Source of the DNA: a virus | Taxonomy: Duplodnaviria > Caudoviricetes | DNA length: 62,291 nt | Reading direction: 5' to 3' (one strand) | IMG/VR virus record: IMGVR_UViG_3300031718_000010 | Coordinates: 1 to 62,291 of that record | Part shown: positions 2,780-47,299 of the stretch, in pieces | How the letters are laid out: each line of letters opens with the position of its first letter | How positions within the stretch are numbered: position 1 is the stretch's first letter | Made by a program: the position numbers and the translations under genes | The notes under the pieces: generated by a model | Told to the model about the DNA's origin: nothing | Databases searched by the model: none | The model's input: the letters and a program-made list of their open reading frames with translations, nothing else

Positions 2780-3393
2780 TGCCCTCAGTTCAAGTTAAAG
2801 GTCAGCCAGTTCCAGCAGCTAATCAAGTTCAAGCTAAATTAATAGTCCCTGAACCTATTAAGGATGAACCAACTCCTTTACCAGCTACATTAGCTAAAGT
2901 TGAACCTGAACCAGCTATCCCCGTTGACCAGCTGCCAGTTAAATCACAAGATGAACTAGCAGCTATATCTATAGCCACCCAAACTATATCTCAACGTAAA
3001 AATATGACCCCATCAACCGAACCAGCTAAACCTGAACTAACCCATGAGGATAGGGTTAAACAGGCTAAGTTAGCTGCTGAAACTAGATGGAGTAAACGCT
3101 ATAACTGGGAAGATAGCCCTATTGAGGATGCCCTTGAATATCTAGCTGAGATTAGATTAGAAGTTGAACGTGGGGGGCTAGTGTTACAGCGTAGGGTAAG
3201 TGATATGAGAGTTGAAAAGGTTAAATGCTTCGGTTGTGATAATATTATAAACGTAAGCGAAGGTAGGTGGGCTACATATCGTACTCGTAATAATTATAAC
3301 ACTGGTATCCCTGAGACTCAATATGCCTGTTCAGCTGCTTGTGCGTTAAAGCTAAATAAGGAATTTGTCCATCCAACTAATAATAGAGGATAA
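2779..3393 (+). CDS. Hypothetical protein with C-terminal treble-clef-like Zn finger
   Basis: CFGC...CSAAC; TAATG coupling. Confidence 0.7.
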   Translation: MPSVQVKGQPVPAANQVQAKLIVPEPIKDEPTPLPATLAKVEPEPAIPVDQLPVKSQDELAAISIATQTISQRKNMTPSTEPAKPELTHEDRVKQAKLAAETRWSKRYNWEDSPIEDALEYLAEIRLEVERGGLVLQRRVSDMRVEKVKCFGCDNIINVSEGRWATYRTRNNYNTGIPETQYACSAACALKLNKEFVHPTNNRG

Positions 3394-3408
3394 AAGGGGG
3401 ATAAGGTT

Positions 3409-3963
3409 ATGAAAGGTCATTTCGCGTATATATCAGGTTATCTAATCTGTGGAGGGTGTGGCTCATCCTTATGTCCATATAACCCTCAAACACCAATAGA
3501 TAATGAATATACCTATAGGGTATATTGTACCAACCCAAGTTGTGCTTGTTATCTTGAAGTATATGAGCCGACTGATAAAATCAAAGTAGGCCTAATCCCA
3601 ACTAAGTTAAGGGCACCTGACCCTAATGCTGTTGCTCAACAACAGCAACAGGCACAAGTTAGGTTAGCAGGTGAGATAGCCAATCAACGGACTGGGATAG
3701 GTGCAACTGGACATGATGACCGTATTGTGGCTGTTAATGTCCCAGGTACATTTCAAGTGACGGACCCAAGGGAATGGACACAGTTAACTAATATTGAGGC
3801 TCCTCCGCTCCCTAGGAATATAGCTGAACGGGAAGCACAAGTTATTAGGAATGCTCAACTCGTTACCGAGACTCCACGTTTATTAACTCGTGAGGAAGTT
3901 GAACAAAGGTATCCAACAAACCCTAACCAAGCTGAAACTCCTGGAGGCCTAATACGTCGCTAG
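3409..3963 (+). CDS. Zn-ribbon protein with low-complexity tail
   Basis: CGGCG...CTNPSC. Confidence 0.65.
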   Translation: MKGHFAYISGYLICGGCGSSLCPYNPQTPIDNEYTYRVYCTNPSCACYLEVYEPTDKIKVGLIPTKLRAPDPNAVAQQQQQAQVRLAGEIANQRTGIGATGHDDRIVAVNVPGTFQVTDPREWTQLTNIEAPPLPRNIAEREAQVIRNAQLVTETPRLLTREEVEQRYPTNPNQAETPGGLIRR

Positions 3964-5828
3964 ACCTTGATAGGGCTACTCTATTACTTAGCAAATTGCC
4001 CATAATAGACAGAGAAAGTGGAGCTAAGTGTAACTTTCGCTTTCGTTATAATCAATGGCTATTAAAGGAACAGTTAAAGGTTCATCAAAAAAAGATAGGT
4101 GGTAAAATTAGAGGAGTCAGCGTTAAAGCTAGACGTGTAGGTGTTAGCAGCGAGATAGATGGTTTCGCTACTTGTCATATCGCAGGTTCCCCAAATGCCA
4201 GGGCTAAGATAGTAGCCTGCTTAGCTGATACCTCTAAGGAATTATTTGATGTCCCAGTTAACCTAATCAGAGCATGGCCCTTCCCCTTACCTGAACCCCT
4301 CGCAACCAAAATCACCTATCCCCATAAAGCAGGTGACTCAACACTAGTCATAATGACCGCCCAAACCGCCATAGCTGGCCGTGGTGGACGTTGTACATTT
4401 CTCCATTTATCTGAAGCAGCCTTCTTCCCAGTGGGTGGGGGTTCATTTACCTCACTATTTCCAAGCGTCCCAGACGACCCAGATACAGGTATATTCGTTG
4501 AGTCCACCGCCTACGGTAAAGTAGGAATAGGCCAAGCCTTCTGGGAGTTTTGGGAAGCCGCTGTTAATGGTGATACTGAATTCTTCCCCTCATTCCTCAC
4601 ATGGTTAGATGACCCTATTTGTTTTCGTGTTCCTGAAGATATTGATATAACTAAACTAAACACAGATGAGAAGGATATCCTAGCAATAGCCGCTATCCAT
4701 TGCTCATCTAAGTGTGGTAGGTGTGAACATTGTTATGATGCTTTAGGTCGTATTGCTTGGAGACGATGGGCTATCCCTAACCTCTGTCAAGGTAAAGTAG
4801 ACAAATTCAGACAGGAATATCCAATAACCGCAGAGGAGGCCTTCTATGCTTCAACCGCCCAAGCCTTTGAACCAGACGAGCGTAGATACGCTAGAGAATG
4901 TGTTAACGCTGGACCTACCCCTCAATACGGACGCCTTACCCAACTCCTCGACGCTTATGGAAATCCAGTCAAAGATAGAGCAGTCTTTAGCCCTGACGAG
5001 CGTTCCAGTCTTGTTATATGGCGTCATCCTAACCCTCTTTACAACTATTATCTCGGCGTTGACTGTGCAAGAGGTGTTGAAAGTACAGATGACTATAGAA
5101 TTAGAGAAGGGAAAGACTACGCTGCTATTGCAGGGTATTGTGGCCAAACAGGGGAACAAGTCTGTAGGTATACATCTAAAATTGGCTCCGAAGCCTTAGC
5201 CTCTCTATTATTCGTAATGGGGAAATATTATAATAACGCAATGGTGGCTATTGAGCTAACTGGTAATTTAGGCTTATGGGTTCAATCAGTATTAAGGACC
5301 AGATATAAGTATACCAATTTCTATCGTTGGAAGGGCAGGGATGATAGGATGCCTAATGGTTATTCTATCTCTGCTTCTATTGGCTTTGAGATGAACGCTA
5401 GAACTAGGCCAATGATACTTGAATCCTTTAGAGGTGGATTATATACTAAACGCTGCATCCCGCGTGACCCATTATTATTACAACAAATGGAAGCTGCTGA
5501 GATGATAGCTGGGGCTTGGGAGGTTCCTGCTAGAATACATGATGATGCTTTAGTATCAAATATGGTAGCCTGGATTTGTAAAGAACAATGGTTTCATAAT
5601 CTCCCTATCAGTACAGGTAATAAATATCTATTAGGTGAGGAAACTCAATTAGAAAAAGGTGAGATGGAATCAGCTAAAGTAGCTATCTCATCAGCCAAAT
5701 CAGACGTTGAAATGCAAGTTAAACAACATTGGAATATGATGTTAAAAAAGATAAAAGCAGCTGGGCAATATAATGAGTTAACTAGTCCTAATAGCGGTGA
5801 GAACCCAGATAGATTAGCTGGAATTTAG
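3954..5828 (+). CDS. terL: Terminase large subunit (track start TTG 3996; ACG 3954 proposed)
   Basis: KARRVGVSS Walker A, LHLSEAAF Walker B, VESTAYG coupling motif, RNase H-like LGVDCARG...DYAA...HDD. Confidence 0.93.
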   Translation, partial: TSLDLDRATLLLSKLPIIDRESGAKCNFRFRYNQWLLKEQLKVHQKKIGGKIRGVSVKARRVGVSSEIDGFATCHIAGSPNARAKIVACLADTSKELFDVPVNLIRAWPFPLPEPLATKITYPHKAGDSTLVIMTAQTAIAGRGGRCTFLHLSEAAFFPVGGGSFTSLFPSVPDDPDTGIFVESTAYGKVGIGQAFWEFWEAAVNGDTEFFPSFLTWLDDPICFRVPEDIDITKLNTDEKDILAIAAIHCSSKCGRCEHCYDALGRIAWRRWAIPNLCQGKVDKFRQEYPITAEEAFYASTAQAFEPDERRYARECVNAGPTPQYGRLTQLLDAYGNPVKDRAVFSPDERSSLVIWRHPNPLYNYYLGVDCARGVESTDDYRIREGKDYAAIAGYCGQTGEQVCRYTSKIGSEALASLLFVMGKYYNNAMVAIELTGNLGLWVQSVLRTRYKYTNFYRWKGRDDRMPNGYSISASIGFEMNARTRPMILESFRGGLYTKRCIPRDPLLLQQMEAAEMIAGAWEVPARIHDDALVSNMVAWICKEQWFHNLPISTGNKYLLGEETQLEKGEMESAKVAISSAKSDVEMQVKQHWNMMLKKIKAAGQYNELTSPNSGENPDRLAGI

Positions 5829-5838
5829 AGGGGATATA

Positions 5839-6345
5839 ATGAATCAACCTTATATAGTTAAACTACTAACTTTATTCGTTAAGCGTAATAAAGGTCCTAT
5901 TCGTATATCCTGTAACGAGCTAATGGACTCAGATGTAGGCCAAGGTATTAGAGTTTGGTGGGATAGTGAAACTAGAGAGCTAGTAGTAGACTTTATGCCC
6001 TCAGGTTCAAAAGTCTATGTAATAGAGGAAAATAAATCATGGCTACAGAACCAATTAATCCCTCAGGAGTCATTGAACAATCCCAAATTACCCCAATCGA
6101 GAGAGGAGCTAATATCCAAGGCGTGGACGGACTCAGCAGCAACTCCCTCGAATCAGGAGTTGTTAAACGCACGCGTGGAAAGGGCAGGCAAAAACAGGAA
6201 CCTGAAACTAGAGGACCAGGACCTAGCCCTAGCGGAAGCGGAACGGGAGAAACGCAGAATAATGAAGTCAATCGAGTCGTTCAGCAGCCCGTCGCCAGCG
6301 GTAGAAACCCTTTCAAGGATTCCGCCAACATTCTTCAAGCAATAG
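5839..6345 (+). CDS. Hypothetical protein
   Basis: SD GAGGGG; overlaps the next ORF by 307 nt. Confidence 0.65.
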   Translation: MNQPYIVKLLTLFVKRNKGPIRISCNELMDSDVGQGIRVWWDSETRELVVDFMPSGSKVYVIEENKSWLQNQLIPQESLNNPKLPQSREELISKAWTDSAATPSNQELLNARVERAGKNRNLKLEDQDLALAEAEREKRRIMKSIESFSSPSPAVETLSRIPPTFFKQ

Positions 6346-6731
6346 CAGACCGTTTCGTAGATGCTCGTAAACATCAGAAAGCAGCCGCATGGCGTCAACT
6401 CCAAGTTGACCTAATGCACGCTTCTCCTTTCATTTGCCCAGTTATCATCCCGTATAAGGACCTAATTAGCATTGTAAGTGATATAGAAAAAGAGATAAAA
6501 GGAGCAACCGAGCAAGTAGGTAAGTCAAATGAAGAGATAATGGCCTCGTTCCTAAGTGGTGAAGGAAGCCTAGTTGTGGCTGAAATGAACATAGCCCCTG
6601 ACATGACTCATGGTAAATCTATTGACAGCCATGATATTATCAAATCAGATGGAGGAGAAGATGGTCCCGTCAAGGATATACCCCTGTCCGTTGACCCTTC
6701 TATCCCGCCAATCTCTCCTCCATCTAGTTGA
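6039..6731 (+). CDS. Hypothetical protein
   Basis: SD GAGGA; 230 aa; abuts the portal gene. Confidence 0.7.
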   Translation: MATEPINPSGVIEQSQITPIERGANIQGVDGLSSNSLESGVVKRTRGKGRQKQEPETRGPGPSPSGSGTGETQNNEVNRVVQQPVASGRNPFKDSANILQAIADRFVDARKHQKAAAWRQLQVDLMHASPFICPVIIPYKDLISIVSDIEKEIKGATEQVGKSNEEIMASFLSGEGSLVVAEMNIAPDMTHGKSIDSHDIIKSDGGEDGPVKDIPLSVDPSIPPISPPSS

Positions 6732-6748
6732 TTCTATTATGGATAACT

Positions 6749-8494
6749 ATGGCTTGGACAGTTAGGACCGAACGTAAGTCATCTGAGAACTATGATATGG
6801 ACCCTAGAGCTAGGGCCATTGATGAGTTACAACGGTTAAGTCGTGATATTAGAGATGATTTCCTAGGTGATGATTGGGCTGAGAATGCTCGTAAGTTCTA
6901 TCATTGTGAAGGAGTTATAGGTAAGGTTCCATCCTTTCGTCCTCAAGTTCAAATCCCTCAATTACAAGTTTTATCTATTAGTGAAGCTACTGAATTATCA
7001 GACCTAAGTCCTAAAGTCTATATATACGATAAAACTAATGGTTCAGTGGATAAGGATAGGTCTAAATCATTCCAAGAAGAGTGGAATAGCCTCTGGATAA
7101 ACTATCATACCCTGTTTAGTAGCCTCTGGGCACAATTAACAGGCATTGGCTTCATCCAACTAGGGTATGACCCATTTGCTGACCTTGGTTTTGGTAAGAT
7201 ATGGTGCCGTCATTTACCGGCTGATGCTTTAGATTGGGATTATAACGCTAATTGTGCTTCTGATGCTACATATGTCATCAAGGAAGATAGACTCTACCCA
7301 GACCAAGTAGCCTATTATTGGCCCGAAACAGGTGCAGGTATCAAGGCTGAAGCCGCTGCCCCTGGCCTTGGAGCTAGGTCAAGTCCAGCCTCAGTTGGCA
7401 CACTCCCGCCTAAGATGAGGTTCCCAGATGGGCCAATGCGTCAGTTTGATGGCCCAGTTGAAGGTGAATCAGTTGAGGCTGATGGTAGACTACGTGTCCG
7501 CTATTTATTTATAGATGATAGAACAGTTGAGATGGTCAAACAGGAAGCAGGGGGGGATGCGGCTAAAATTATCAGCATCGCCCAGCAAACTGGCTCAAGG
7601 GGAGAGCGTGTCCGCCGTCTCAAATACCCTAATAAAAGGCTTATTGTCTGTGTATCTGGGCGTACTAGTCGTTGTGTAGCTGATGGGGATAATCCAACTC
7701 CAGCTGGAAAGTATCCGTTTATCCCTATCTATGGCCTCCCTCCGCTTAAGGGATTTTACCCTCCGCCACCAACTCGTTATACCCGAGATTTACAAGCCTT
7801 AGCTGAGCGTATCCTAACCCAAGTGTTTGAAAATGTGGTTAGAACTAATAACGCTGTATGGTTTATTGATAAAAATAGTGAAATAGACCTTAATGAGTTT
7901 CGCGGCCTCCCAGCTGAGGTTGTTGAATATAATGGCCAGACTGGTAAACCTCCAACAGCTGAATATCCCAACGCTATCCAGGATAGTGTTATCAAGCTAG
8001 TAGACTGGATGCTCAACACCCAAAAGGACTTACAAGGATTCAACGAAAGTAGGCAAGGTCAACCTAGTCAAGGTAATATATCAGCTGACTTATATGAGGC
8101 ATCTATATTTCAATCTAAGGCCCTAACTAGGTGTAGGGCTAGGTTACTTGCTCATTCAATGTATGAAACAGCTTCTCTTCTATATGATATGATGTCTACT
8201 TATTATAGAAAAGAGAGAGCTTACGCCTCAACTGAAGGGGGATTCAGCACTGTAACATGGAAACCTTATATGGGTGCCGCTCAACAAAATAATAGATTAC
8301 ACATAGACCCAGCTAGCTTATTACCAATTAGTCAAGCTGCAATGAGGCAGATAGCTCCAATGCTCGCGGAGCAAGGGAAGATTGATACTGAGACACTATT
8401 AGAGAGCTTAGGTATACCTGATGCCGCTGGTATCGCTCAACGCGCTACCCGTGAATTATCACTTGCCGCGCTCCAAAAGATGAAGAGGAGATAA
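6749..8494 (+). CDS. Portal protein (ATG 6749 preferred)
   Basis: ~580 aa after terL; TGIGFIQLGYDP, KYPFIPIY, RDLQ and GFNESRQG pattern typical of podophage portals. Confidence 0.85.
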   Translation: MAWTVRTERKSSENYDMDPRARAIDELQRLSRDIRDDFLGDDWAENARKFYHCEGVIGKVPSFRPQVQIPQLQVLSISEATELSDLSPKVYIYDKTNGSVDKDRSKSFQEEWNSLWINYHTLFSSLWAQLTGIGFIQLGYDPFADLGFGKIWCRHLPADALDWDYNANCASDATYVIKEDRLYPDQVAYYWPETGAGIKAEAAAPGLGARSSPASVGTLPPKMRFPDGPMRQFDGPVEGESVEADGRLRVRYLFIDDRTVEMVKQEAGGDAAKIISIAQQTGSRGERVRRLKYPNKRLIVCVSGRTSRCVADGDNPTPAGKYPFIPIYGLPPLKGFYPPPPTRYTRDLQALAERILTQVFENVVRTNNAVWFIDKNSEIDLNEFRGLPAEVVEYNGQTGKPPTAEYPNAIQDSVIKLVDWMLNTQKDLQGFNESRQGQPSQGNISADLYEASIFQSKALTRCRARLLAHSMYETASLLYDMMSTYYRKERAYASTEGGFSTVTWKPYMGAAQQNNRLHIDPASLLPISQAAMRQIAPMLAEQGKIDTETLLESLGIPDAAGIAQRATRELSLAALQKMKRR

Positions 8495-8764
8495 ATGGCC
8501 ACCCTACCCATAACCTTTGCCTTCTCAAATTGGTATACCCTTAAGTTTATAGCCTCTCGTTTAGGTAAATCATTAAGGACAGTCCAATATTGGAACGAAC
8601 GTGGCTTATTTCATCGTATGGGGCTTAAAGTGATAACTGTTCATATTAAACCTAGTCCTGCTAGAGGGATAACTTGGATTCAAATACCCATAACCAGCAA
8701 ACACGCAATGTTTAGTAAAGTCCATCTTGACATCCCTCCTATCAACCATTCACAATCCAAATGA
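8495..8764 (+). CDS. Helix-turn-helix DNA-binding protein (MerR/Xis-like)
   Basis: YTLKFIASRLGKSLRTVQYW. Confidence 0.65.
   Translation: MATLPITFAFSNWYTLKFIASRLGKSLRTVQYWNERGLFHRMGLKVITVHIKPSPARGITWIQIPITSKHAMFSKVHLDIPPINHSQSK
8727..8756 (+). promoter_or_regulatory. Sigma70-type promoter, leaderless arrangement
   Basis: TTGACA-18-CACAAT, 4-7 nt before ATGATG. Confidence 0.55.
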
Positions 8765-9030
8765 TGAAAGGTCTAAGCAAGGGAGTTGAGTTACTCCATT
8801 TCGATAAAGACCCGGCGGATAGCGAATGGTACGTCGCTCAACTAGCTTGTAATGGGACCTTAGGGATAGCGTTTAGTATTCCAACTCCCTCTGTTATAGA
8901 CTTACTAAAACAAGGTGAGGAATATCTAGGCAGCTATTTAGAGAGACAAGCAGTAGAGATGATAAATAGATATGGGGATGCCCGTGACACTCGCCCGGAC
9001 CCAGTATTAACTGGTGAAGCAAGGATATAA
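8761..9030 (+). CDS. Hypothetical protein
   Basis: 89 aa ORF. Confidence 0.65.
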   Translation: MMKGLSKGVELLHFDKDPADSEWYVAQLACNGTLGIAFSIPTPSVIDLLKQGEEYLGSYLERQAVEMINRYGDARDTRPDPVLTGEARI

Positions 9031-9041
9031 GGGAGATTAAA

Positions 9042-9149
9042 ATGGCTAAAAAGGAACATGAATCCAAGGCCGAAATGAAGCGCGAGGAGATGAAGAAGGA
9101 ACATAAAAAGGCAGGGCGGCATCATTCCCGTCATGGTGGAAAAAAGTAA
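9042..9149 (+). CDS. 35-aa Lys/His/Glu-rich peptide (not in ORF track)
   Basis: SD GGGAG; MAKKEHESKAEMKREEMKKEHKKAGRHHSRHGGKK. Confidence 0.65.
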   Translation: MAKKEHESKAEMKREEMKKEHKKAGRHHSRHGGKK

Positions 9150-9256
9150 TGGCCAAGGGTGGGGATAGACAAGCTAAACAAGCAGCTAAGAATGGTATGC
9201 CCTTAGCTCCTAAAGGTTCAGGTAAAAGGATTAGCAGTAGAAAGGGAGGGAAATAA
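9149..9256 (+). CDS. 35-aa basic peptide (not in ORF track)
   Basis: TAATG coupling; MAKGGDRQAKQAAKNGMPLAPKGSGKRISSRKGGK. Confidence 0.6.
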   Translation: MAKGGDRQAKQAAKNGMPLAPKGSGKRISSRKGGK

Positions 9257-9258
9257 AA

Positions 9259-9522
9259 ATGGGTAAGCCGACTGAAAATACAAAGGTATCTGAGAACACA
9301 GCCGAAGAGGGATTTGAGCACGGTGGGGGTATGGAGATTTTAAGCCCATTAACCTATGAAGGCCGTGGTGGTGGGAATCCCGATAGTCCGCACATCACAG
9401 GTGTTAACCCCAACCCGCATAGTGAGGAACCTATTGAGCCTAAAGACCCTATGGGTATCTTATCCACCATCACTGGTGGAGCTACAGGTCGTGGCAAGCG
9501 TGGTGGAGCATACGGTAAGTAA
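9259..9522 (+). CDS. Small head-region protein
   Basis: SD GGAGG. Confidence 0.7.
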   Translation: MGKPTENTKVSENTAEEGFEHGGGMEILSPLTYEGRGGGNPDSPHITGVNPNPHSEEPIEPKDPMGILSTITGGATGRGKRGGAYGK

Positions 9523-9756
9523 ATGGCTAAATCAGTTAAAATAGCGGGTGAAGGATTCGGGGACCCTGGTATCACCGGAAATGAGGGTGCTGAGCAGGTT
9601 ATTAGCCCTCTCAGTTTTCAAAATAACAGTGGTCAAACTGTAACTGAACGCAACACCCCCGAATGGCCCTGTCAACTTGAGGATGAAGGTGAACCATACC
9701 CAATCCCTCAAGATACCCTTGGATTCATCCCTAAGGTTCACGGTGGGAAAAAGTAA
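9523..9756 (+). CDS. Small head-region protein, possible paralog of 9259
   Basis: Shared EGF / SPL / EP..P.D..G pattern. Confidence 0.65.
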   Translation: MAKSVKIAGEGFGDPGITGNEGAEQVISPLSFQNNSGQTVTERNTPEWPCQLEDEGEPYPIPQDTLGFIPKVHGGKK

Positions 9757-10196
9757 TGGGAGCAAACCCCTTAATGGCCGCTTTAGCCCCTATGCTTATG
9801 GCAAGGTTATCAGGGGGTGGTTCGGGTGGAGGTCCCCCAGGTGGTCCGGGTACAGGACCCGCTTCATCCCCCGCAGACATGGCTCAGTCCGCTAGTTATG
9901 GTAGGGAGCTATCATCTGCTAGACAAGCCGACCCTGCTGCATTAGGCCAAAAGATAATGCAGATTAAAAGTATGATAGGTGAGATTATCACTCAAACTTT
10001 ACATAGCAGCCCAGGTGTAGCTAGGGCTATGTCTAAGACATTACAAGGTTTAGATGCAGCTATGAAGGAAGCCGCTGAGAATGCCGCTACCCTTCAGATG
10101 GCTCAACCATTACAGGCATCAGCAGCACAAGGTGCCCCAGGTTCAGGAGGCCCAATGCCTTCACCAGTTGGAACGCCTGGAATGGGGCAGATGTAA
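9756..10196 (+). CDS. Gly/Pro/Met-rich head-region protein
   Basis: Coupled ORF before the scaffold gene. Confidence 0.7.
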   Translation: MGANPLMAALAPMLMARLSGGGSGGGPPGGPGTGPASSPADMAQSASYGRELSSARQADPAALGQKIMQIKSMIGEIITQTLHSSPGVARAMSKTLQGLDAAMKEAAENAATLQMAQPLQASAAQGAPGSGGPMPSPVGTPGMGQM

Positions 10197-10221
10197 TTAA
10201 CTAAGTCAAAGGGATAATCAT

Positions 10222-11112
10222 ATGCCTACACTTAAAGAAGTATTAGCTGACAAAGCCAAATATCAAGACAGCCTATTATGGAAATTTGATGATACAACTT
10301 CAGTCACATTAGGTCAACTTAGACAATTATCTGATGAAAAGCAAGCTCAACTCAGTAAGCAGGAAACTGATATGCTTAAGCGTCAAACTGAGCTAGATGC
10401 CGCTGATAGAAAACTTAAAGATAGCCAAATCCAAACAGCTAATGTATTCACCTCCTTAAATAGCGCAATGGAAGCTATCAAGGCTGGCAGGTTAAACGAC
10501 CCTGCTGTTACCAGTTTATTTGGGAATAATGGCGTCCCTGGTGTAGGTCCAACTGGACCAGCTGACCCCTTTGCTGAATTATCTCGGCTTGAATCTGATA
10601 GCTTAATGGGGCCATTGGTTAAAGTATTAAAGGTAGTCAATGACCGTGCCCAAAAAGCCGAGCAAGCCGTAGCTAATAACATAAAAGTCCAGCAAACTAT
10701 GGCTACCCACTATCTAAATGGCACCTTAGAAGATAGATACGATAGACTCGTCCCGGCTGATAAGCAGGATAAAATCACCCTAGAAGCCCTAATTAGGGAC
10801 GCGGTAGCCCATAACGAGCTTAGAACAGATAGCACCCCTGATATTCGTAAGGCTTATATTCGTGCAACCGCAGCTGATACTCAGGCTGAGCATGATAAAC
10901 AGGTAGCTGAAGCAGCTATCAAAAAATACCAAGAGGAACATCCAGACAGCAATAACGCAATCAACGTACCCCCTACCTCTAGCTTTTTCGGCTTAGACGT
11001 GCATAATAGGGGTGGTGACGCAGCCAAACCATTTAAGAACCTAGATGAGGCATTTGCCGCTGCTGCGAAGGACAAAGATATCTGGTCATCTGTTGACCAA
11101 ATGAAGAATTAG
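10222..11112 (+). CDS. Putative scaffolding protein
   Basis: Helical/coiled-coil ORF upstream of the capsid gene; C-terminal FKNLDEAFAAA helix. Confidence 0.65.
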   Translation: MPTLKEVLADKAKYQDSLLWKFDDTTSVTLGQLRQLSDEKQAQLSKQETDMLKRQTELDAADRKLKDSQIQTANVFTSLNSAMEAIKAGRLNDPAVTSLFGNNGVPGVGPTGPADPFAELSRLESDSLMGPLVKVLKVVNDRAQKAEQAVANNIKVQQTMATHYLNGTLEDRYDRLVPADKQDKITLEALIRDAVAHNELRTDSTPDIRKAYIRATAADTQAEHDKQVAEAAIKKYQEEHPDSNNAINVPPTSSFFGLDVHNRGGDAAKPFKNLDEAFAAAAKDKDIWSSVDQMKN

Positions 11113-11163
11113 TTCGTTGACTTAAATAGCAAAGTATGTCATCCTTCTTAACTGAAGGGTGAT

Positions 11164-11745
11164 ATGCCTAAAAAGTTTGATAGTTTAGAGGAAAAGCGTG
11201 AGTATCAGCGCAATATACAAGCTAACTGGAGAGCAGCCAATCCAGATAAAGTGGAGGCTGCTAAATCTGCTGCTGCGGAAAGAACAGCTAAATGGCGTGA
11301 GGAGCGTACTCCAGAAGAACGTGAAGCTGGGAGGCTTCAAGTTGCCAAATGGCGGGCTGATTTTAAGAAACGTGACCCCGAAGGTTATAGAAAATACGAA
11401 AACGAACGTAATAAGCGGGAAAGGGACAAACTTAAGGCTGAAGTCATTGCTGAATATGGGGGAAAATGTACCTGTTGTGGCGTTACAGGACCAGAATTTC
11501 TTACTATCCACCACATCGCAGGGGATGGAGCAGCACATAGAGCCTTATTATTCCCTAGTCAAGCCTCAAATCGTGGAGGCGGGGGATATAGATTTTGGCT
11601 CTGGCTCAAACGTAATAAATGGCCTAAAGACAATTTTGCGCTTCATTGTTATAACTGTAACTGTTCTAAGGGATTCTATGGCTACTGTCCGCATGAGCGT
11701 GCTGGGGATGATATACCAGCACCTCTCGGCGTAGCAGGAGGGTAG
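11164..11745 (+). CDS. Free-standing HNH-type homing endonuclease
   Basis: YGGKCTCCG..FLTIHHI...LHCYNCN...CPHE. Confidence 0.8.
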   Translation: MPKKFDSLEEKREYQRNIQANWRAANPDKVEAAKSAAAERTAKWREERTPEEREAGRLQVAKWRADFKKRDPEGYRKYENERNKRERDKLKAEVIAEYGGKCTCCGVTGPEFLTIHHIAGDGAAHRALLFPSQASNRGGGGYRFWLWLKRNKWPKDNFALHCYNCNCSKGFYGYCPHERAGDDIPAPLGVAGG

Positions 11746-11749
11746 CTAT

Positions 11750-12748
11750 ATCGCTGGCGTCATAGGAATGGGACTCCAAAATCCGCCGTTGGTTTTGGTG
11801 AACACAATGAATAGTATTTCAGCTAAGTACGTTATACCCACGTTAGGGGACACAATATTTATCCCTTCCCCTACATGGTGGGCAATGACCCGTAATGGGA
11901 AGAAGTTTGGTATGGGTGAAATTGTCTACCCTGAAATCTTCCAGGAAGAACAGACTGGTGGGGCTTATTTTGGTGACCAGCTTCTTGACACGGCAGTAGT
12001 GGATAGCGTCACCCCAGCTAACCAAGTATGGCGCTTCTACCGCCAATCTATGGCCATCCCCATCACTGATATTATCCTCAACCGTGGGGGTTATCTCAAC
12101 CTAGTTAAGACTAAGTATGAGATAGCATCAGCCTCATTCCTTCAAAAGTTAAGCCGTGCAATCTGGGGTACTAGCCCTCAGAATACAGCATTAGACGTTG
12201 ATAGCATCCCTACTTGGTTAAATAGCCAAACCAACACTGTTGCCGGGATTAATAGAACCACAGCTGCAAATGCTTTCTGGCGTCCACAGGCTGCTGTTGC
12301 TCTTGCTGGCACCGTGTTACCTAGCCAACTTGAAACTGGTTATCAGAACACTGTATTTGGTTATGATGAACCTGATGTCCTTACTTTAACCAATGCCTGC
12401 TACGCCTCTTTTAAGTCTAACTATATCCCAACCTCAGCAGCTAACGTAGGCGTAATCCGTTTCGGTAGGGATAGCCAGCAGGAACAAGTCCCCCAGGGTT
12501 CCATCCGTAATCACTTCATGTTTAATAATGCCTTAGTGCTCCCTGACCGCTTTAATCCAGCTAACACTCTTAGCTTGATTAACACTAAGTATATGTATCC
12601 TGTGTTCCATGAGTCTGATTACTTTACCGTGGACCCATTTATTAAGCCTAGTAACCAGCGTGTTGTTGTCTCGACAATGTATGTGACTTGGCAATTAATT
12701 AATCGTAGTCCTAGGATGGGAGTTACGTTCACGGGCGCGCCAGCTTAA
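11750..12748 (+). CDS. Major capsid protein (track ATG 11768; ATC 11750 proposed)
   Basis: ~330 aa after the scaffold; DTIFIPSPTW, AGINRT..AFWR, PDVLT and C-terminal NRSPRMG pattern typical of HK97-fold podophage capsids. Confidence 0.85.
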   Translation: MAGVIGMGLQNPPLVLVNTMNSISAKYVIPTLGDTIFIPSPTWWAMTRNGKKFGMGEIVYPEIFQEEQTGGAYFGDQLLDTAVVDSVTPANQVWRFYRQSMAIPITDIILNRGGYLNLVKTKYEIASASFLQKLSRAIWGTSPQNTALDVDSIPTWLNSQTNTVAGINRTTAANAFWRPQAAVALAGTVLPSQLETGYQNTVFGYDEPDVLTLTNACYASFKSNYIPTSAANVGVIRFGRDSQQEQVPQGSIRNHFMFNNALVLPDRFNPANTLSLINTKYMYPVFHESDYFTVDPFIKPSNQRVVVSTMYVTWQLINRSPRMGVTFTGAPA

Positions 12749-12791
12749 ACAAAATAAAGGACTTATACGGTTTGAGGTAAAGAAAAAGCGA

Positions 12792-13310
12792 ATGGAAATA
12801 ACAGCCCAATACCTAGCAGGTTTCGTAGATGGAGAAGGCTGCATCTATGTAAGAACCTGTAATTATAGGACTAAAGGACTTGCTAAACTTGCTAATAAAA
12901 TAGTTAGAAGCAAACGGGTTAAGGCGAGATTAACTATAGTTAATGTTCATCTTCCTACCTTACAGCTAATTGCTGAACAGTGGGGAGGAAAGATATACGC
13001 CAGGATTCATGGTAAGTATTATGAGGGACGCAAGATTAGGCAAAGTTGGCAGCTAAATTGGGACAAGCAAGAGGAGCTACTTAAAGTTTTAGTAGCTATT
13101 CAGCCTTACCTTATCCAGAAGCGTCCACAGGTAGATTATTTCTTGTCTGAATGGGTACCTACAATGCGTGATATACGTGGTGGAGGGTATCACCTTACAG
13201 ATGAGGAGTATAATAAGCGCCTTGAGGTTGGAACTAAACTCAAGGAACTTAAACATGAAGAGTTTGTGGCTACACGCCCTAATATGAGGGCAGAAAGCCT
13301 AGGAGGGTAG
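12792..13310 (+). CDS. Free-standing LAGLIDADG homing endonuclease
   Basis: YLAGFVDGEGCI; IQPYLIQKRPQ. Confidence 0.88.
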   Translation: MEITAQYLAGFVDGEGCIYVRTCNYRTKGLAKLANKIVRSKRVKARLTIVNVHLPTLQLIAEQWGGKIYARIHGKYYEGRKIRQSWQLNWDKQEELLKVLVAIQPYLIQKRPQVDYFLSEWVPTMRDIRGGGYHLTDEEYNKRLEVGTKLKELKHEEFVATRPNMRAESLGG

Positions 13311-13314
13311 CTAT

Positions 13315-13713
13315 ATCGCCATTGTAAACAAATTGACTACGCTTATGCCTGCGTTTGGTGCGCCAACTGAATATATAACCCTATTAGGCCAAGCTGTGGT
13401 TAACACAGCCACCACTACCAATTATGTCCTGACTGGATTTATCAACTATGTCCGGTCAGGTAGGGTTAGATTTAAGATTATCCCCCCTGCTGGTGCGGCT
13501 GGTCAAATCACAGCCATTGTCATCACTGGTACTGATGGCACTACCACCGTTACCCTTTACCAAGACGCCGTTGCTAGAACCGCTGGCACTAACCTTGATT
13601 TCCTATATAGCTTCATTAGCGAACTTAACCTTACCACTGTAACTGTAGCTGTAACCACAGCCGCCGCTGGTGCGGCCTCAACCGCTGACCTTGAAATTAC
13701 AGGTAACCCGTAA
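13315..13713 (+). CDS. Putative capsid decoration/cement protein (ATC 13315 proposed)
   Basis: Thr/Ala-rich beta protein right after the capsid gene. Confidence 0.6.
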   Translation: MAIVNKLTTLMPAFGAPTEYITLLGQAVVNTATTTNYVLTGFINYVRSGRVRFKIIPPAGAAGQITAIVITGTDGTTTVTLYQDAVARTAGTNLDFLYSFISELNLTTVTVAVTTAAAGAASTADLEITGNP

Positions 13714-13740
13714 TCAGATTATAATCAGGAGGCTTAGGAG

Positions 13741-13950
13741 ATGGCGGTGCCCCTATCCACTACTGGAGTAGCTGTTAAGGCTGCTATTACTTTACGTCTA
13801 GTTGAATTGGGCCACGCGTTATCCCCTAGTCATATTGCTGCTTTAACTGCTGATATCATGACTACTATCAACGCTAATTCTGGAACGGTAGTAGCTGATG
13901 CTGCCATGGATACACTAGGCTATCAGCCTCCAGCACATGGGAAATTTTGA
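13741..13950 (+). CDS. Small virion-region protein, paralog A
   Basis: RL...GH.L...TINANSGTV shared with 13999. Confidence 0.7.
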   Translation: MAVPLSTTGVAVKAAITLRLVELGHALSPSHIAALTADIMTTINANSGTVVADAAMDTLGYQPPAHGKF

Positions 13951-13998
13951 TATGTTATATAGCGTGATAAATAGTATGCTAAATAGGGTAGGTGTAAC

Positions 13999-14205
13999 AT
14001 GCCTGTCGCTTCAGCCACTAGGGTAGCATTGTTAGCTATCTGTCAGACAAGATTAGCTAACCAAGGACATTTATTAGATAGTAGCCAGCTAGGTGCTTTA
14101 GTAGATGACATCGAGTTTACGATTAACGCTAATAGTGGCACGGTATTAAGTGATGTAGGGGTAGACCTAGGCTTATGGCCGGACCCGACCCAAGGGGGAA
14201 ATTAA
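13999..14205 (+). CDS. Small virion-region protein, paralog B
   Basis: See 13741. Confidence 0.7.
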   Translation: MPVASATRVALLAICQTRLANQGHLLDSSQLGALVDDIEFTINANSGTVLSDVGVDLGLWPDPTQGGN

Positions 14206-14206
14206 G

Positions 14207-14455
14207 ATGGCTACTATTGATACATCTAAGGTATTTGAAACCGTTAAACAAATAGCCTTAGACGAACTTAGAGCTAAGGGTTATGCACCTAACTCCGCTG
14301 ATGTCGTTGGTATAGCTAAGTTATCAGCTGCGTTAGTTATAGCAGAAGTGGAGAAGGCTATGGCTGAAGTTTCAACAGCTAGTCAGCCTAAGACGTTTCC
14401 TTCAACGTCTAGCTCAGTTGTTCCACCTACAGAGCTAACAAAGCCTCCCGTCTAA
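14207..14455 (+). CDS. Hypothetical protein
   Basis: SD GGGGG. Confidence 0.65.
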   Translation: MATIDTSKVFETVKQIALDELRAKGYAPNSADVVGIAKLSAALVIAEVEKAMAEVSTASQPKTFPSTSSSVVPPTELTKPPV

Positions 14456-14466
14456 AGGAGGCTCCC

Positions 14467-15735
14467 ATTCTAGTCGGTGATATAATCATTGAATCCCGTG
14501 AGTTAATCCCTGACCTACCTCAGGTCATGGGTCCTCCCTTCCTTAATCCAACCTCAGCTGGGACTAACATAGCCGGGGGTAACATAGCTCCAGGAAGCTA
14601 TATTATCGTAATCACTAATACTAACGCTTGGGGGGAATCCCTTCCATCAGCCCAAGTAACTGTAGTAGTTGCCCCAGGCCAAAATGCCATAAATCTATTA
14701 TATAATGGTGCTCCTGGAAATACAGGGAACGGTAAGGTATATGTATTAAATGGAGCCTTGGGAGTCCCTAATAATCAAGCTATAGTTATCCCATTCTCTG
14801 ACCCTACGTTCTCTGGTGTTATTCCTATCCTTAATGTAACATCTAGCCCTAATAGTGCAGGATTACCCCCATCTCGTTCATCTGCCTTTCTCCCTGATAC
14901 AGATGGTAGGTTTGCATCAGTTGGGACATTATATCGTTGGCTTAATTCAGCCTTAAACACAGCAGCCTATATCTGTAAAGGTATCCCTGACACAAGCGGT
15001 ATCCAAATGGTCCAGCAACAAGGCATGTATACCATGCCGGGAATATGGGAAAAGATTGAGAATATGTGGTTTGACGGTTATCCCCTTGCTGCTGACTCAA
15101 GGGGTGGGGGATTCTATCGTAACGTCCTAACTGGTATCAGTTTTATAATCATATTACAAACAAATAGTGATAGACAGATAATCGAACTCCAACCTCAACC
15201 AGATAGAACAGGTGGCTCAACAACCTTAAGTGTAGAGGCTGGGATAAATGATACCCAATTTAGCCTTGCATCCAGCGCGTCAATAGGCTTATCCCTAGGA
15301 ATGGCTCAAGTAGGCACAGAGGTAATCAGCTATGGGACATTAGCTGGTCCTGGGTTTATAGGCTGTGCCAGGGGATTAGGGGGGACACAACAGCAGGCAT
15401 GGCCTGTTGGTACGCCTGTCACTGAGCTTAATTTTAGGTTTGGCGGCTTGCGTCTAAATCAACAAGTCCAATATCTCCCTGGGCAATCTAACATCAGCTT
15501 ACAAGTCCCTCCAGGCTGGCGTCCAGCCTTAGTTGATTATATCATAGGTAAGGCCCGTGAAGGAGAAAGAAAGGGGCCTGAGGCTAAGGAATATTTACAA
15601 AAATTCACTAGTTTTCTTAAAGACTATATGAGAGGGACTAGACAAACAGCTGGCCCTAGACAACTTGGAAGCGTAACTCCTGCGGGTGACGGATATCCTA
15701 GTGCGAGTTCCGGGGGCCGAATAATAGTTCCTTAG
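14467..15735 (+). CDS. Head-tail adaptor-like protein with inserted beta domains (ATT 14467 proposed)
   Basis: LVGDIIIESRELIPD / LYRWLNSAL / IELQPQPD / VPPGWRPALVDY adaptor-type segments. Confidence 0.65.
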   Translation: MLVGDIIIESRELIPDLPQVMGPPFLNPTSAGTNIAGGNIAPGSYIIVITNTNAWGESLPSAQVTVVVAPGQNAINLLYNGAPGNTGNGKVYVLNGALGVPNNQAIVIPFSDPTFSGVIPILNVTSSPNSAGLPPSRSSAFLPDTDGRFASVGTLYRWLNSALNTAAYICKGIPDTSGIQMVQQQGMYTMPGIWEKIENMWFDGYPLAADSRGGGFYRNVLTGISFIIILQTNSDRQIIELQPQPDRTGGSTTLSVEAGINDTQFSLASSASIGLSLGMAQVGTEVISYGTLAGPGFIGCARGLGGTQQQAWPVGTPVTELNFRFGGLRLNQQVQYLPGQSNISLQVPPGWRPALVDYIIGKAREGERKGPEAKEYLQKFTSFLKDYMRGTRQTAGPRQLGSVTPAGDGYPSASSGGRIIVP

Positions 15736-15745
15736 GAGCTAAGTT

Positions 15746-16228
15746 GTGTCGAATCAATACTTTAGTAGCTTATATTGTAAGAATGGCCATCTTTTACTTG
15801 GGGATAATATAAGGCGTACCGCATTTACTATTGCTAGAAATATGAGACAATGTAAGCTGTGTTGGTCTGCCTATATGAAGAAGCTGAGGAATAATAACCT
15901 CGAAAAATTTAGAGCTAAAGAAAAGAGGATAACTACTAATCGCTGTCAGCGTTATAAGCAGATGATATTTGAGGCTTACGGTAGAGTGTGTGAATGCTGC
16001 GGAGAGACACACGAAGCGTTTCTTACTCTTCACCATAAAAAGGATAATGGAGCAGAACATAGAAGATTACGCAGAGGAGCTAAACTATGGTACCTAGATG
16101 TAATTCGTGCTGGGTTCCCTAAAGACGAATATGGTTTACTTTGTATGAATTGTAATTACGCTCGTCGTTGGGGTAAACAGTGTCCTCACGAACTCGAACG
16201 TAGACAATCTCAAATAGCTGCTGACTAA
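15746..16228 (+). CDS. Free-standing HNH-type endonuclease
   Basis: CKNGH..CKLC N-domain; YGRVCECCG..FLTLHH...LLCMNCN...CPHE; related to 11164. Confidence 0.8.
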   Translation: MSNQYFSSLYCKNGHLLLGDNIRRTAFTIARNMRQCKLCWSAYMKKLRNNNLEKFRAKEKRITTNRCQRYKQMIFEAYGRVCECCGETHEAFLTLHHKKDNGAEHRRLRRGAKLWYLDVIRAGFPKDEYGLLCMNCNYARRWGKQCPHELERRQSQIAAD

Positions 16229-40829: not shown

Positions 40830-41013
40830 CTATCCTCATTATCGTTACTCTAACCTTTGGGGCTTTGGGACCCTTACTTTTATTAAGTGATGTTGCTGTT
40901 ATTTTAGCAGAAATACAAGCGCCTGTCAACTTGTTTATTGTTGGACCTAATAGATAGTGGCGTCCCTCACCATGAGAGATAACTTTTATATATTTCCCTT
41001 TCTCTAATATCAT
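40810..41013 (-). CDS. Small basic protein
   Basis: ATGA-coupled to the polymerase gene. Confidence 0.5.
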   Translation of the reverse strand: MILEKGKYIKVISHGEGRHYLLGPTINKLTGACISAKITATSLNKSKGPKAPKVRVTIMRIVEIYDE

Positions 41014-43667
41014 ATATTAACCTCATTCATCCCATTCTTATTATCATCATCCATAGGAGCTAGATTACTCCCAACCTTAATCTCAAATCCAATATCTAAT
41101 CCCCCAAGCTCAGCAATAGGCTTATTAAACTGCCTAGCCATACACTCAATAGCACTATCCACAAGATGATTGGGCGTCTCGAATACGAGTGAGTCGTAAG
41201 TTGGTAGACGCATAAGGTTGCCAATATTAGGGATAACAGACAAGGCAAGGATGTCCTCACGTTGAATAGCCGCTCCATCACTCTGCGGCCTAAACGCAAT
41301 AGCCCGTTTCGCATCCCCTTCATGGTCTACCTCCCATTTATTAGCTCGTTTATTCATCTTATATATAGGGCCATAGAAATAATGTCTATATTGAAAGCTA
41401 TTATCTAGATATTTCTTACCCCAGACTTCTTCTAATGTAGCTTTGTGATAACTTCTAATAGCCTGTCCAGCTGGGCTACCGAACAGGATATCCTGAACCT
41501 TCTGAGCACTATACTCAGTAGGGAAATACTCTTCATATTCGTCATGCATACCATAGGGTGACAATAGATATGACGAACCATGTACACACCGTTTCCATCC
41601 TTCATAGTCATCACCTCCTCTTTTCTTAAACTGTTTAAGTAACTTTTTAAGTTCAGGTAATGGGGTATCTCTAATAACAGCCCAAGGGACTTCATCCCCT
41701 AATACAATCGAACCAAGATAACTATGAACCCCAGCCTTAGCTAGTTTGATATATTCAGGACTCTTAGCCCAATAACCAACTAATACAGCCTCTAATCCAC
41801 TTCTATCTATCTCAATTAGCTTACATCCTTCTTCTGCGATGATAGTCCTACGAAATAAACGAGCTAAATCATTTCGTTTGGGGATATTACCAAGATTTAC
41901 ATTTCTACTTGAGCTTCTCCACGTTGAGGGATGGAACCCATACTGGCTGTGTGCTCTGTCATTCTCATCTAAAGGCCAATTATATGTTGATAAGAACTTT
42001 AATTTCTGCTTGTAAGAAACGCAATGACGAAATATGGGATGCTTAGTTAACCTTTTGAGATACTTAGCTTCAGTTGATTCTCTATCATCACCCCTCGCTT
42101 TTGGGATTTTAACCTTTAACTCCCTCATTAGGTCTAATAAGTCAGGCCTGCTATTAGGATTAAACGGTTTAGTCCTAATCCAAATAGGCCTCATTACTTG
42201 TCCACCAGCTATAACTAATGACCCATCCTTAGTCTTAGCAGGGGCCTCACCAGATACTGTCTTAGTAGCTTCAATATATATACGTTTGGATATAGGGGTA
42301 TTAGGGCCAGCTATGGACTTTTTAAGTGGCTTGAATGATTGCTCTATTTTAATTAATTTAGCTGGCAATAACTCTTGAACCTTATTAAACTCAACCTTAG
42401 CATCAGTTTCCATTGCAGCCATAAATGGAACCCTAGCTTCCTTATCAACCTTTACACCCGCAACACCCATATTTACATAAATAGGGTCAACCTTAACGCA
42501 ATGACTCCAAAACCTATCCCATCTACCATCCTTAATTAACTGTGCCTTGGTCCCTTCATATACTCCCATCTGTACGGCGTTATCCATTCCATTATAAAAC
42601 GCAGGACGTTGGCTATGTAGATGCTTCCACGGTTTACCAGAATAGAAGAACGGGGCTGCGAAGTTGAGGGCTTTTGGTAGGTCTGAGTATAACCAGTGCC
42701 ACGCCCACATAGCGTCAACAATCTGAACATCCGGGTGTAACTCGAACCCATTACTCTTGAGCCTAGGTAAGTCGTAGTTTTTATTCCAGAAGGAGATAAC
42801 TCTAGCTTTACGGATAAGCTCTTTAGCTCGTCGGATGTAATCCCCATCAAACGGGAAAGATACGCCTTCCCACTGTCTGATAGAGAATCCCATACGTAGT
42901 ATTTGATAAGATGGGTCATCCTCACTTTCCTCCTCGTTCTTCCCTTGTAATGACCTAGGAGTTTCAATATCACACATTAGAAAGGGGATATCCCCTCTAC
43001 CTGGGAAGTTGATATAAGCTGGAGGGGGGTCCTCTATTATCTTAGTCTCAGTTGGCTTATATGAGCCATTAGCTATCTCAACAGCCCTAGCTAGAGAGAG
43101 GATGAAAGCAATAGTATACTTCCAATTCCCTTGTATTATAGATGACGGATGGAAGGTAGGGACCGCAGGTATTCCCTCGTAAACCGATGGGATGACATAG
43201 GCGTGATTGCCTTCAATTCCCTCGAAACCTGTGAGCCTCCGTAGGGCCACGTTTCCAAGCGCAATAAACACCTTAGGCACACGTTTGGCGACAAGGTTAT
43301 CCAGGTACGGCTTACACTGTTTCTGTGCATATTCGGCTTCTGGATATTTCCAAGGCTCATCATTCATCCCTAGTGCTGGAGGAGAGCACCAATAGCTATT
43401 AGTAACAGTAAACTCCTCCCTTGTCAATCCTCTTTTAGATAATATAGTATCAAGCCATCTGCCACTAGCACCACTAAAATTGCGATTAGCCAATATCTCC
43501 TCTTTCCAAGGAGAATCCCCAACGATACATATACCATTAGAGCCGCTACCATCAGGCTCAATCCTACGCCCACCAGTATGTTGGTAATGGCATTTATCAC
43601 AATAAGGCCCTTGGACTAGGGGATTACCTTGATTAAAGATAGGTAATTCAACTTTAACTTTAGCCAT
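41010..43667 (-). CDS. polA: Family A DNA polymerase with N-terminal family-4 UDG-like domain and 3'-5' exonuclease
   Basis: IVGDSP..FSGASG..FHPS (UDG); DIET, NKNYD, YNGMD (exo); NLGNIP, IDRSGLE, KRCVHGSSY, PQSDGA, TYDSL (pol). Confidence 0.93.
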   Translation of the reverse strand: MAKVKVELPIFNQGNPLVQGPYCDKCHYQHTGGRRIEPDGSGSNGICIVGDSPWKEEILANRNFSGASGRWLDTILSKRGLTREEFTVTNSYWCSPPALGMNDEPWKYPEAEYAQKQCKPYLDNLVAKRVPKVFIALGNVALRRLTGFEGIEGNHAYVIPSVYEGIPAVPTFHPSSIIQGNWKYTIAFILSLARAVEIANGSYKPTETKIIEDPPPAYINFPGRGDIPFLMCDIETPRSLQGKNEEESEDDPSYQILRMGFSIRQWEGVSFPFDGDYIRRAKELIRKARVISFWNKNYDLPRLKSNGFELHPDVQIVDAMWAWHWLYSDLPKALNFAAPFFYSGKPWKHLHSQRPAFYNGMDNAVQMGVYEGTKAQLIKDGRWDRFWSHCVKVDPIYVNMGVAGVKVDKEARVPFMAAMETDAKVEFNKVQELLPAKLIKIEQSFKPLKKSIAGPNTPISKRIYIEATKTVSGEAPAKTKDGSLVIAGGQVMRPIWIRTKPFNPNSRPDLLDLMRELKVKIPKARGDDRESTEAKYLKRLTKHPIFRHCVSYKQKLKFLSTYNWPLDENDRAHSQYGFHPSTWRSSSRNVNLGNIPKRNDLARLFRRTIIAEEGCKLIEIDRSGLEAVLVGYWAKSPEYIKLAKAGVHSYLGSIVLGDEVPWAVIRDTPLPELKKLLKQFKKRGGDDYEGWKRCVHGSSYLLSPYGMHDEYEEYFPTEYSAQKVQDILFGSPAGQAIRSYHKATLEEVWGKKYLDNSFQYRHYFYGPIYKMNKRANKWEVDHEGDAKRAIAFRPQSDGAAIQREDILALSVIPNIGNLMRLPTYDSLVFETPNHLVDSAIECMARQFNKPIAELGGLDIGFEIKVGSNLAPMDDDNKNGMNEVNI

Positions 43668-47292: not shown

Positions 47293-47299
47293 CCCAAGA

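Follow-up and report, generated by a model that had tools for sequence, protein, structure and literature searches.

Probable near-cognate start codons behind strong Shine-Dalgarno sequences at four late genes of an uncultivated soil phage, and a recurrent leader at two of them

Where do the morphogenesis genes of a tailed phage begin when the codons that follow their ribosome binding sites are not ATG, GTG or TTG? The question is raised by IMG/VR record IMGVR_UViG_3300031718_000010 (Duplodnaviria; Caudoviricetes), a complete virus record of 62,291 bp with direct terminal repeats and a GC content of 0.43, which comes from an uncultivated soil phage and was analysed over its whole length (the window). 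Nearly all other genes in the window start with ATG behind a Shine-Dalgarno sequence (SD). The original prediction placed the starts of the large terminase gene, the major capsid gene, the gene after it and an adaptor-like gene at ACG, ATC, ATC and ATT respectively, and proposed that together they form a late translational switch. It is reasonably probable that the four genes are translated from these near-cognate codons behind strong SDs, the ACG being less certain, but not as one designed switch. Such starts are likely because homologous N-termini map to them and because the residues encoded before the first canonical codon are conserved despite synonymous changes; judged from sequence, support is good at the three ATH codons (ATA, ATC or ATT) and moderate at the ACG.

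The large terminase gene (PHROG phrog_2, E = 8.2e-14) encodes 624 aa when read from the ACG at 3954-3956 (gene 3954-5828, + strand), and its start region (3943-3956, +) has GGAGG at 3943-3947 and a 6-nt spacer. The major capsid gene (11750-12748, +; 332 aa; PHROG major head protein) and the gene after it (13315-13713, +; 132 aa; no family) are both read from ATC, at 11750 and 13315. Their start regions (11736-11754 and 13301-13319, both +) carry AGGAGGG at 11736-11742 and 13301-13307, in each case 7 nt before the ATC. The adaptor-like gene (14467-15735, +; 422 aa), which has a weak SU10_adaptor match under the cut-off, is read from ATT at 14467-14469, preceded in its start region (14455-14469, +) by AAGGAGG at 14455-14461 and a 5-nt spacer; the leader before this ATT is AAGGAGGCTCCC. 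A GGAGG-type SD is therefore present 5-8 nt before the proposed codon at all four sites, and each SD and codon reads as the original prediction had given it. All four codons are in frame with the listed open reading frames (ORFs) and upstream of their listed starts. The first ATG, GTG or TTG downstream is TTG 3996 in the terminase, ATG 11768 in the capsid, TTG 13333 in the next gene and ATG 14527 in the adaptor-like gene, at distances of 14, 6, 6 and 20 codons, and the earlier statement that these starts have no SD at usable spacing was borne out for all four. Upstream ORFs stop 4 nt before the proposed start at the capsid and next genes, 11 nt before it at the adaptor-like gene and just after it at the terminase, where the TAG (3961-3963) of a 184-aa ORF of no family (3409-3963, +) lies 7 nt past the ACG start; this ORF has a weak homolog in front of the terminase of another IMG/VR locus, L009.

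The window was also scanned for GGAGG followed by 4-9 nt and a non-canonical codon opening an ORF of at least 80 codons, with an in-frame stop before any canonical start. Seven near-cognate candidates were obtained: the four sites above, two directly beside a well-placed ATG, which are trivial, and ACG 47361 (-), which follows GGGAGG and 6 nt in ORF 45778-47379 (-). The last was rejected, as its 23-codon extension is covered by none of 11 homologs; those homologs that have the N-terminal Cys-rich part begin at the window's ATG 47292. The protein of this ORF (504 aa) has no Pfam family and has many relatives on contigs of ~62 kb.

Alignment of homologous N-termini, the check that the original prediction had suggested, showed that homologs start at or next to the proposed codons and not at the downstream ATG or TTG, their own codons being ATG or TTG. 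For the capsid gene, ATG is found exactly at the position of the window's ATC in six of six related IMG/VR loci (81-98% identity over the matched part), giving MAGVIG(M/L)G. The wider capsid family comprises 311 proteins (E up to 1e-20); among 21 that were fetched, 13 begin at the homologous position, seven have a conserved N-terminal extension of 40 residues and one (P0089) begins elsewhere, being called from 'MNS...', 20 residues short. The seven extended proteins (P0090-P0093, P0095, P0096 and P0098) form a subfamily of ~70% identity (...STRVVIDMESMQV...) with Cys or Ala in place of the initiator Met of other members. The gene after the capsid gene begins with ATG-MA(I/V)VNKL or -NS at the position of the window's ATC in four lineages (L001, L002/L003, L004 and L110). 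The adaptor-like gene begins with TTG-ML(I/V)GD(V/I)I... at the position of the ATT in both L001 and L002, which also conserve the 20 residues that precede ATG 14527 of the window; a pattern search of IMG/VR yielded no relatives of the adaptor, nor of the LAGLIDADG protein described below. With TTG in the relatives and ATT in the window, the start appears to be weak across the adaptor lineage. The proposed positions thus hold for these three genes, although the relatives found by protein similarity carry ATG or TTG there. At the terminase the three homologous loci (68-74% identity) begin with ATG-L(N/D)LDRAT one codon later than the ACG, and the 13 residues that follow (14 in all at the N-terminus) are conserved with many synonymous differences.

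Both ATC codons of the window lie inside an identical 19-mer, AGGAGGGTAGCTATATCGC, which occurs only at 11736-11754 and 13301-13319 (both +), where no copy would be expected by chance; there is no third copy in the window at up to three mismatches. The leader within it consists of the 14 nt AGGAGGGTAGCTAT followed by ATH (17 nt in total) and combines a perfect SD, a built-in TAG 4 nt before the start and an Ile-type codon, with GTAGCTAT as its spacer. In both copies the TAG is the stop of a free-standing homing endonuclease gene. At the capsid this is an HNH gene (11164-11745, +; PHROG HNH, E = 3.1e-6 and 1.8e-5; no Pfam match), which sits between a scaffold-like gene (10222-11112) and the capsid gene. 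The second copy ends a LAGLIDADG gene (12792-13310, +; Pfam LAGLIDADG_1, 24.0 bits against a cut-off of 23.1; PHROG phrog_5046, E = 2.3e-17) between the capsid gene and the next one. The two endonucleases are not related to one another. A normal gene start elsewhere in the window (59783-59800, -), GGAGGGTAGATT-ATG, has the first 9 bases of the SD part of the leader in common, with ATG as its codon.

The HNH gene is present before the capsid gene in the window, L110 and L001, and absent from L002-L006; in L002, L003, L005 and L006 the scaffold gene is followed by a short spacer with AGGAGG and the ATG of the capsid. L001 has a diverged HNH and then ...GGAGATAGCT-ATG as the capsid start. L110, which differs in GC content (0.53 against 0.43 in the window), has a homologous HNH, the exact leader and ATC in front of a capsid gene that is 78% identical to that of the window. 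Because the HNH identities to the window (64% in L110, 48% in L001) are discordant with those of the capsid (78% and 95%), the endonuclease and its junction have a history separate from their flanks. A homolog of the LAGLIDADG protein (40% identical) is found at the same place in L004, there followed by TAGGAGCTAAATT-ATG, and among the relatives compared this is the only one besides the window; L001, L002 and L110 have no endonuclease between the two genes, and their next gene starts with ATG. Both endonuclease genes are therefore insertions that replaced a native SD and ATG still present in endonuclease-free relatives. The leader is the right-hand end of each insertion, and supplies the capsid and next genes with an SD, with the TAG that ends the upstream ORF and with an Ile-type start codon. 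On the simplest reading the capsid copy of the leader, being common to the window and L110, is the older of the two, and we infer that the copy before the next gene was made from it within this lineage.

Three further observations concern the endonucleases. A third gene of this kind (15746-16228, +; 160 aa; GTG start) lies just past the adaptor-like gene and is similar to the HNH at 11164 and to that of L110, and L002 also has an HNH relative after its adaptor gene. The start region of the gene at 15746, TAGGAGCTAAGTT-GTG, nearly repeats the TAGGAGCTAAATT-ATG junction after the LAGLIDADG gene of L004. The 5' untranslated parts of the homologous HNH insertions (window 11113-11163; L110 reverse strand ~3080-3137) share TTGAC...GTATGT.ATCCT, which is promoter-like.

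If native starts were lost, two of them by endonuclease insertion, shortened proteins might instead be made from TTG 3996, ATG 11768, TTG 13333 and ATG 14527, perhaps by scanning ribosomes. Such codons do exist 14, 6, 6 and 20 codons downstream; each upstream stop is only 0-11 nt from the proposed start, so that scanning reinitiation is conceivable; the loss of six capsid residues might be tolerated, and gene callers picked these starts (P0003-type calls, and the 'MNS...' of P0089). This alternative is nonetheless unlikely. All four downstream codons lack an SD at usable spacing, and relatives conserve the residues that would be skipped, among them 20 of the adaptor and 14 of the terminase. 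L004 has CTA (Leu) at the position of the window's ATG 11768, so the downstream Met of the capsid is not conserved, and L110, which keeps the leader and its ATC, has Ile (ATT) there; its next ATG is codon 20, and a start at it would remove 19 residues.

The reading of ATH as a true start is extended by the occurrence of the leader in other sequences. The exact 19-mer is present in four other IMG/VR contigs. When the start codon was left free (AGGAGGGTAGCTATNNNGC), 16 IMG/VR loci were found, of which seven have ATC, ATT or ATA with long ORFs and none has ATG; the other nine have other codons and ORFs of 5-108 aa, and look like chance matches. The 16-mer AGGAGGGTAGCTATAT is present in 18 IMG/VR contigs (GC 0.38-0.65), all 18 with an ORF of 53-745 aa in the AT-N frame; the codon is ATC in nine, ATT in five, ATA in one and ATG in three, and the second codon is unconstrained. 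Prokaryote genomes (one per species; 185,579 species, 596 Gb) contain 69 matches to the 16-mer, of which 16 are start-like (13 ATG, two ATC and one ATA). One of the two ATC cases is on a 22.9-kb contig of a soil metagenome-assembled genome and the other is doubtful, and the ATA case is internal to a translation-factor gene. The ratio of ATH to ATG is thus 15:3 in viral contigs versus 3:13 in prokaryotes (Fisher p = 3.9e-4).

Among the matches listed in a metagenome scan, at least 47 are start-like (at least 26 ATG, 12 ATC, six ATT and three ATA), and clustering of all start-like matches listed gives at least 28 ATH and at least 28 ATG gene families. Three of the ATH families (L039/L144, L077 and L154) were judged false. 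Their products mark the ATH families as phage-like (coat, tail and fibre-like proteins, dUTPase, amidotransferase) and the ATG families as mostly cellular; two ATG-type starts are viral, family L029/L033/L150 and L026, the latter outside the clustering filter. Other GGAGG-led starts in 37 sequences (36 loci and the window) have ATG (41), TTG (7) or GTG (4), with a handful of ATH candidates that lack the leader. Since canonical codons dominate these starts, ATH is tied to this particular leader, and the AGGAGGGTAGCTAT-ATH form appears from these searches to be restricted to viral and virus-like contigs. No match to the 32 nt around the 19-mer was found in GenBank phages by blastn, the sensitivity of which is an estimated ~18 nt or more, so that the 16-mer could occur there. 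Literature searches at the level of titles and abstracts gave no report of a recurrent non-ATG leader or of capsid genes started at ATC or ATT.

In several carriers of the leader the ATH codon can be placed at the first position of a known family, which is a further argument against shortened proteins. Residue 2 of L012 aligns to position 2 of the P22 coat profile, so that its ATC is position 1, and L013 reads (ATC)AGPGFTTV beside an adjacent paralog that begins ATG-MAGFGFTTV. L034, L036 and L222 encode GATase_6 enzymes with Cys directly after the ATC; this class requires a Cys that is exposed after the initiator. The non-canonical codon is kept at the capsid in L110 and, constant to its third base, within the families L034/L036/L222 and L031/L151/L180, a biased sample since it was found through the leader itself. 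A search for relatives of the amidotransferase, as an unbiased comparison of leaders, returned only the query's own contig.

The same distribution bears on whether the letters themselves are correct. A sequencing or assembly artefact, with ATG or TTG as the true bases, would be conceivable in a low-depth metagenome assembly, where cover of the exact bases by a second run is uncertain. We regard it as very improbable. Independent (Logan) contigs of one run, possibly from the source sample, hold 413 of 413 sampled 31-mers over 11000-15000 (a fraction of 1.00), and those of a run of a second study hold 0.50 of the same 31-mers; no RNA run is among those listed. The 19-mer occurs twice in the window and in contigs of many data sets and submitters, including the diverged L110 at the same gene, a recurrence that speaks strongly against an artefact. 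The ATC sites differ from the ATG sites of relatives by two extra bases and not by one miscall, and the third base is constant within the gene families named above.

A further possibility is that the codons are read in another way, either through initiation by an elongator Ile-tRNA, for example if the initiator tRNA or initiation fidelity is impaired, or through fusion of the gene to its upstream ORF by frameshifting, hopping, stop read-through or RNA splicing. All three Ile codons follow the leader (ATC > ATT > ATA) and ATG is rare behind it in viral contigs; in a review citing Winther and Gerdes 2011 (PMC3905216), initiation at elongator codons is reported to occur when the initiator tRNA is cleaved, which keeps an Ile-tRNA alive as a minority view. 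Fusion could be suggested by GGA GGG TAG in the endonuclease frame, which is +1 from the capsid frame, and by L110, L012 and L013, where the upstream ORF is in the same frame with a single TAG between. Taken together, however, these readings are quite unlikely. The upstream ORFs vary in the frame in which they end and in their distance, some being on the opposite strand, with no shared slippery or take-off and landing site, and the terminase overlap contains no slippery heptamer. Regarding splicing, only a tRNA was detected in the whole window at the Rfam gathering threshold, and at E up to 5 the region 3000-16000 gave two chance-level matches, neither to an intron family; the leader of L013 abuts the upstream stop and leaves no room for an intron.

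As for an Ile-tRNA, none with an Ile anticodon is encoded in the window, which has a tRNA-Leu(TAA) at 50747-50835 (-) and a tRNA(CAT) at 49011-49086 (-) with an encoded CCA end. The latter is of the elongator Met or Ile2-like type and not of the bacterial initiator type, because its first acceptor base pair (1:72) is paired. Proteins started at AUC or ACG in E. coli are reported to carry N-terminal Met (bioRxiv 10.1101/063800). Initiation at the four codons of the window would most likely be by the initiator tRNA.

Nothing in these data is of greater interest, or less well explained, than the recurrent AGGAGGGTAGCTAT-ATH leader. Tentatively, AGGAGGGTAGCTAT-AUH could be a self-contained, phage-specific start module, that is, an exact 17-nt cassette which moves between genes and phages, often with homing endonucleases or accessory genes, overwrites the native SD and AUG of an essential late gene and initiates on an Ile-type codon. 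Among the carriers listed, a homing endonuclease lies directly upstream of the leader in eight families: twice in the window, in L110, in L010 and L012 (by eye) and in L023, and on the opposite strand in L011 and L030/L035. In other carriers the gene upstream is a glycosyltransferase, a GNAT, a COOH-NH2 ligase, a DUF1599 or a tail gene. The TAG inside the leader is the stop of about half of the upstream ORFs, whose products hence end in Gly-Gly. The endonucleases may either carry the leader or home to it. Loose groups of carriers can be recognised (window/L110/L013/L025/L152; L011/L012/L032; L034/L036/L222), and in the first two the leader stands at different genes within the group.

Searches around the leader gave no partner sequence or second conserved end (no k-mer of 11 nt or longer is common to more than three of 18 loci in the 2.5-kb flanks), no shared trans-acting or neighbouring gene (no family occurs in more than three of 29 carrier loci) and no near-variants in the window or the loci. 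Five complete or nearly complete carrier genomes have one exact copy each, with four three-mismatch matches compared with three for a reversed control. Because single exact copies without near-variants are found in carrier genomes, a general late-gene signal seems unlikely.

The other two sites have contexts of their own. A hairpin is predicted over the adaptor SD (14442-14463, +), in which 14442-14448 pairs with 14457-14463 and the upstream TAA (14453-14455) is in the loop (-19.6 kcal/mol; z = -2.33; six of 200 shuffles fold as well), which would place the SD in a stem with the final codons of the upstream ORF. In L001 and L002 a CCTCC-like stretch likewise faces a GGAGG-like SD, the consensus fold of the three sequences being weak. 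Translation of the adaptor is probably coupled to the upstream ORF and kept low, because of this predicted SD-sequestering hairpin and the TTG of the relatives; low expression would be in keeping with a portal-proximal protein of low copy number. At the terminase, the ACG falls within the final codons of the upstream ORF and the local fold is not unusual (z = -1.06), a context that fits low, coupled expression. The original prediction of one concerted late switch is not upheld, because two of the sites are copies of the 19-mer with endonucleases, the adaptor start is weak in relatives and has a hairpin, and the terminase context is different again; the four do not look like one regulon.

Several points weigh against near-cognate initiation at these sites. 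In E. coli, AUA, AUC, AUU and CUG are reported to initiate at 1-2% of AUG, and ACG belongs to a group at 0.1-1% (bioRxiv 10.1101/063800). Judged by analogy with E. coli, a codon of the former class is hard to reconcile with the copy number needed for a capsid protein, and the ACG would be in the weaker class still; ATT and ACG appear plausible for low-copy proteins, and the ATC at the major capsid is puzzling unless initiation at AUH is made more efficient by the leader, by the host or by the state of infection. The capsid gene has an ATG six codons downstream that could serve, and in all three terminase homologs the ATG aligns with the window's TCG 3957, one codon past the ACG. The logic of SD plus near-cognate codon gave one false call in this genome (47361). 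Cover of the exact bases by independent contigs is uncertain, although the pieces listed show no differing letter at the four sites. Coupling cannot be general for the leader, given that L011 and L030/L035 have their nearest upstream gene on the opposite strand, and the presence of the leader as an exact, single 14-nt copy at different genes of different phages, without shared flank, neighbour or near-variants, is unexplained. Finally, initiation at these codons, as well as the identity of the tRNA, is deduced from sequence comparison. Dependence on coupling or on relaxed IF3 proofreading is possible; the IF3-dependent initiation that had been proposed is neither supported nor refuted by the sequence.

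The four genes belong to a podovirus-like structural block on the + strand, which comprises the large terminase, a P22/SU10-like portal, the scaffold-like gene, the major capsid, the adaptor-like gene and very large tail or ejection proteins. The portal ORF (6728, +) has a TTG that opens directly after an in-frame TAG and overlaps the TGA of the upstream ORF (TTGA), without an SD. A replication block on the - strand encodes a PIF1-like helicase, a PD-(D/E)XK nuclease and a PolA fused to a uracil-DNA-glycosylase-like domain; this last protein (41013-43667, -; 885 aa) has the uracil-DNA-glycosylase-superfamily domain at its N-terminus (residues 45-180) and a family A DNA polymerase domain. The window also encodes a ThiF/E1-like gene (E = 2e-22) adjacent to a weakly JAB-like gene (E = 9e-4, under the cut-off) at 53094-55560 (-), presumably the 'Ubl system' to which, together with an ART, the original prediction had linked the switch. 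That link is unsupported speculation: no ART family was found by Pfam among the window proteins scanned, and no translation-factor-like Pfam family in the 70 scanned, most small ORFs being without any family.

If the four starts are as described, database starts will be wrong where gene callers accept only ATG, GTG and TTG, as with the window capsid, called six residues short, and P0089, called 20 short. A major capsid protein made from AUC would mean that some hosts or infected cells initiate on AUH far better than E. coli does, or that the leader compensates, and either would be new for bacterial translation. The leader may also be a handle on how homing endonucleases keep the genes that they disrupt alive. 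If mobile, the leader would represent a unit of phage mosaicism far smaller than the usual gene-sized modules, and as a start module it could tie expression of the gene behind it to one of three conditions: termination of the inserted gene (addiction), relaxed proofreading by IF3, or starts that are independent of the initiator tRNA.

Among known systems, infC (IF3) and other bacterial genes that start with AUU, AUC or AUA likewise have a near-cognate codon behind a functional SD. Starts of the infC type are subject to discrimination by IF3, and relaxed initiation proofreading is expected to increase expression from them. In the window, by contrast, the codons are at structural phage genes including the major capsid, two of them have a fixed 14-nt leader common to other phages, and no autoregulatory logic is evident. 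Termination-reinitiation coupling and SD-sequestering hairpins are similar in that upstream stops are near the starts and the adaptor SD is predicted to lie in a stem with the upstream ORF's end; coupled genes, however, normally keep ATG, GTG or TTG, and some carriers of the leader have their nearest upstream gene on the other strand. The HNH and LAGLIDADG ORFs resemble the free-standing homing endonucleases of T4 (seg/mob type) in their place between conserved genes, their presence or absence among relatives and a phylogeny that disagrees with that of the flanks. The T4 gene 60 cassette, in which the endonuclease and an unusual translation signal travel together, also has that signal at the junction with a downstream essential gene. 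Here the junction is a restart leader with a non-ATG codon and not a coding gap, and, unlike in cassettes of the T4 type, the same leader follows endonucleases of different families as well as genes that do not encode endonucleases.

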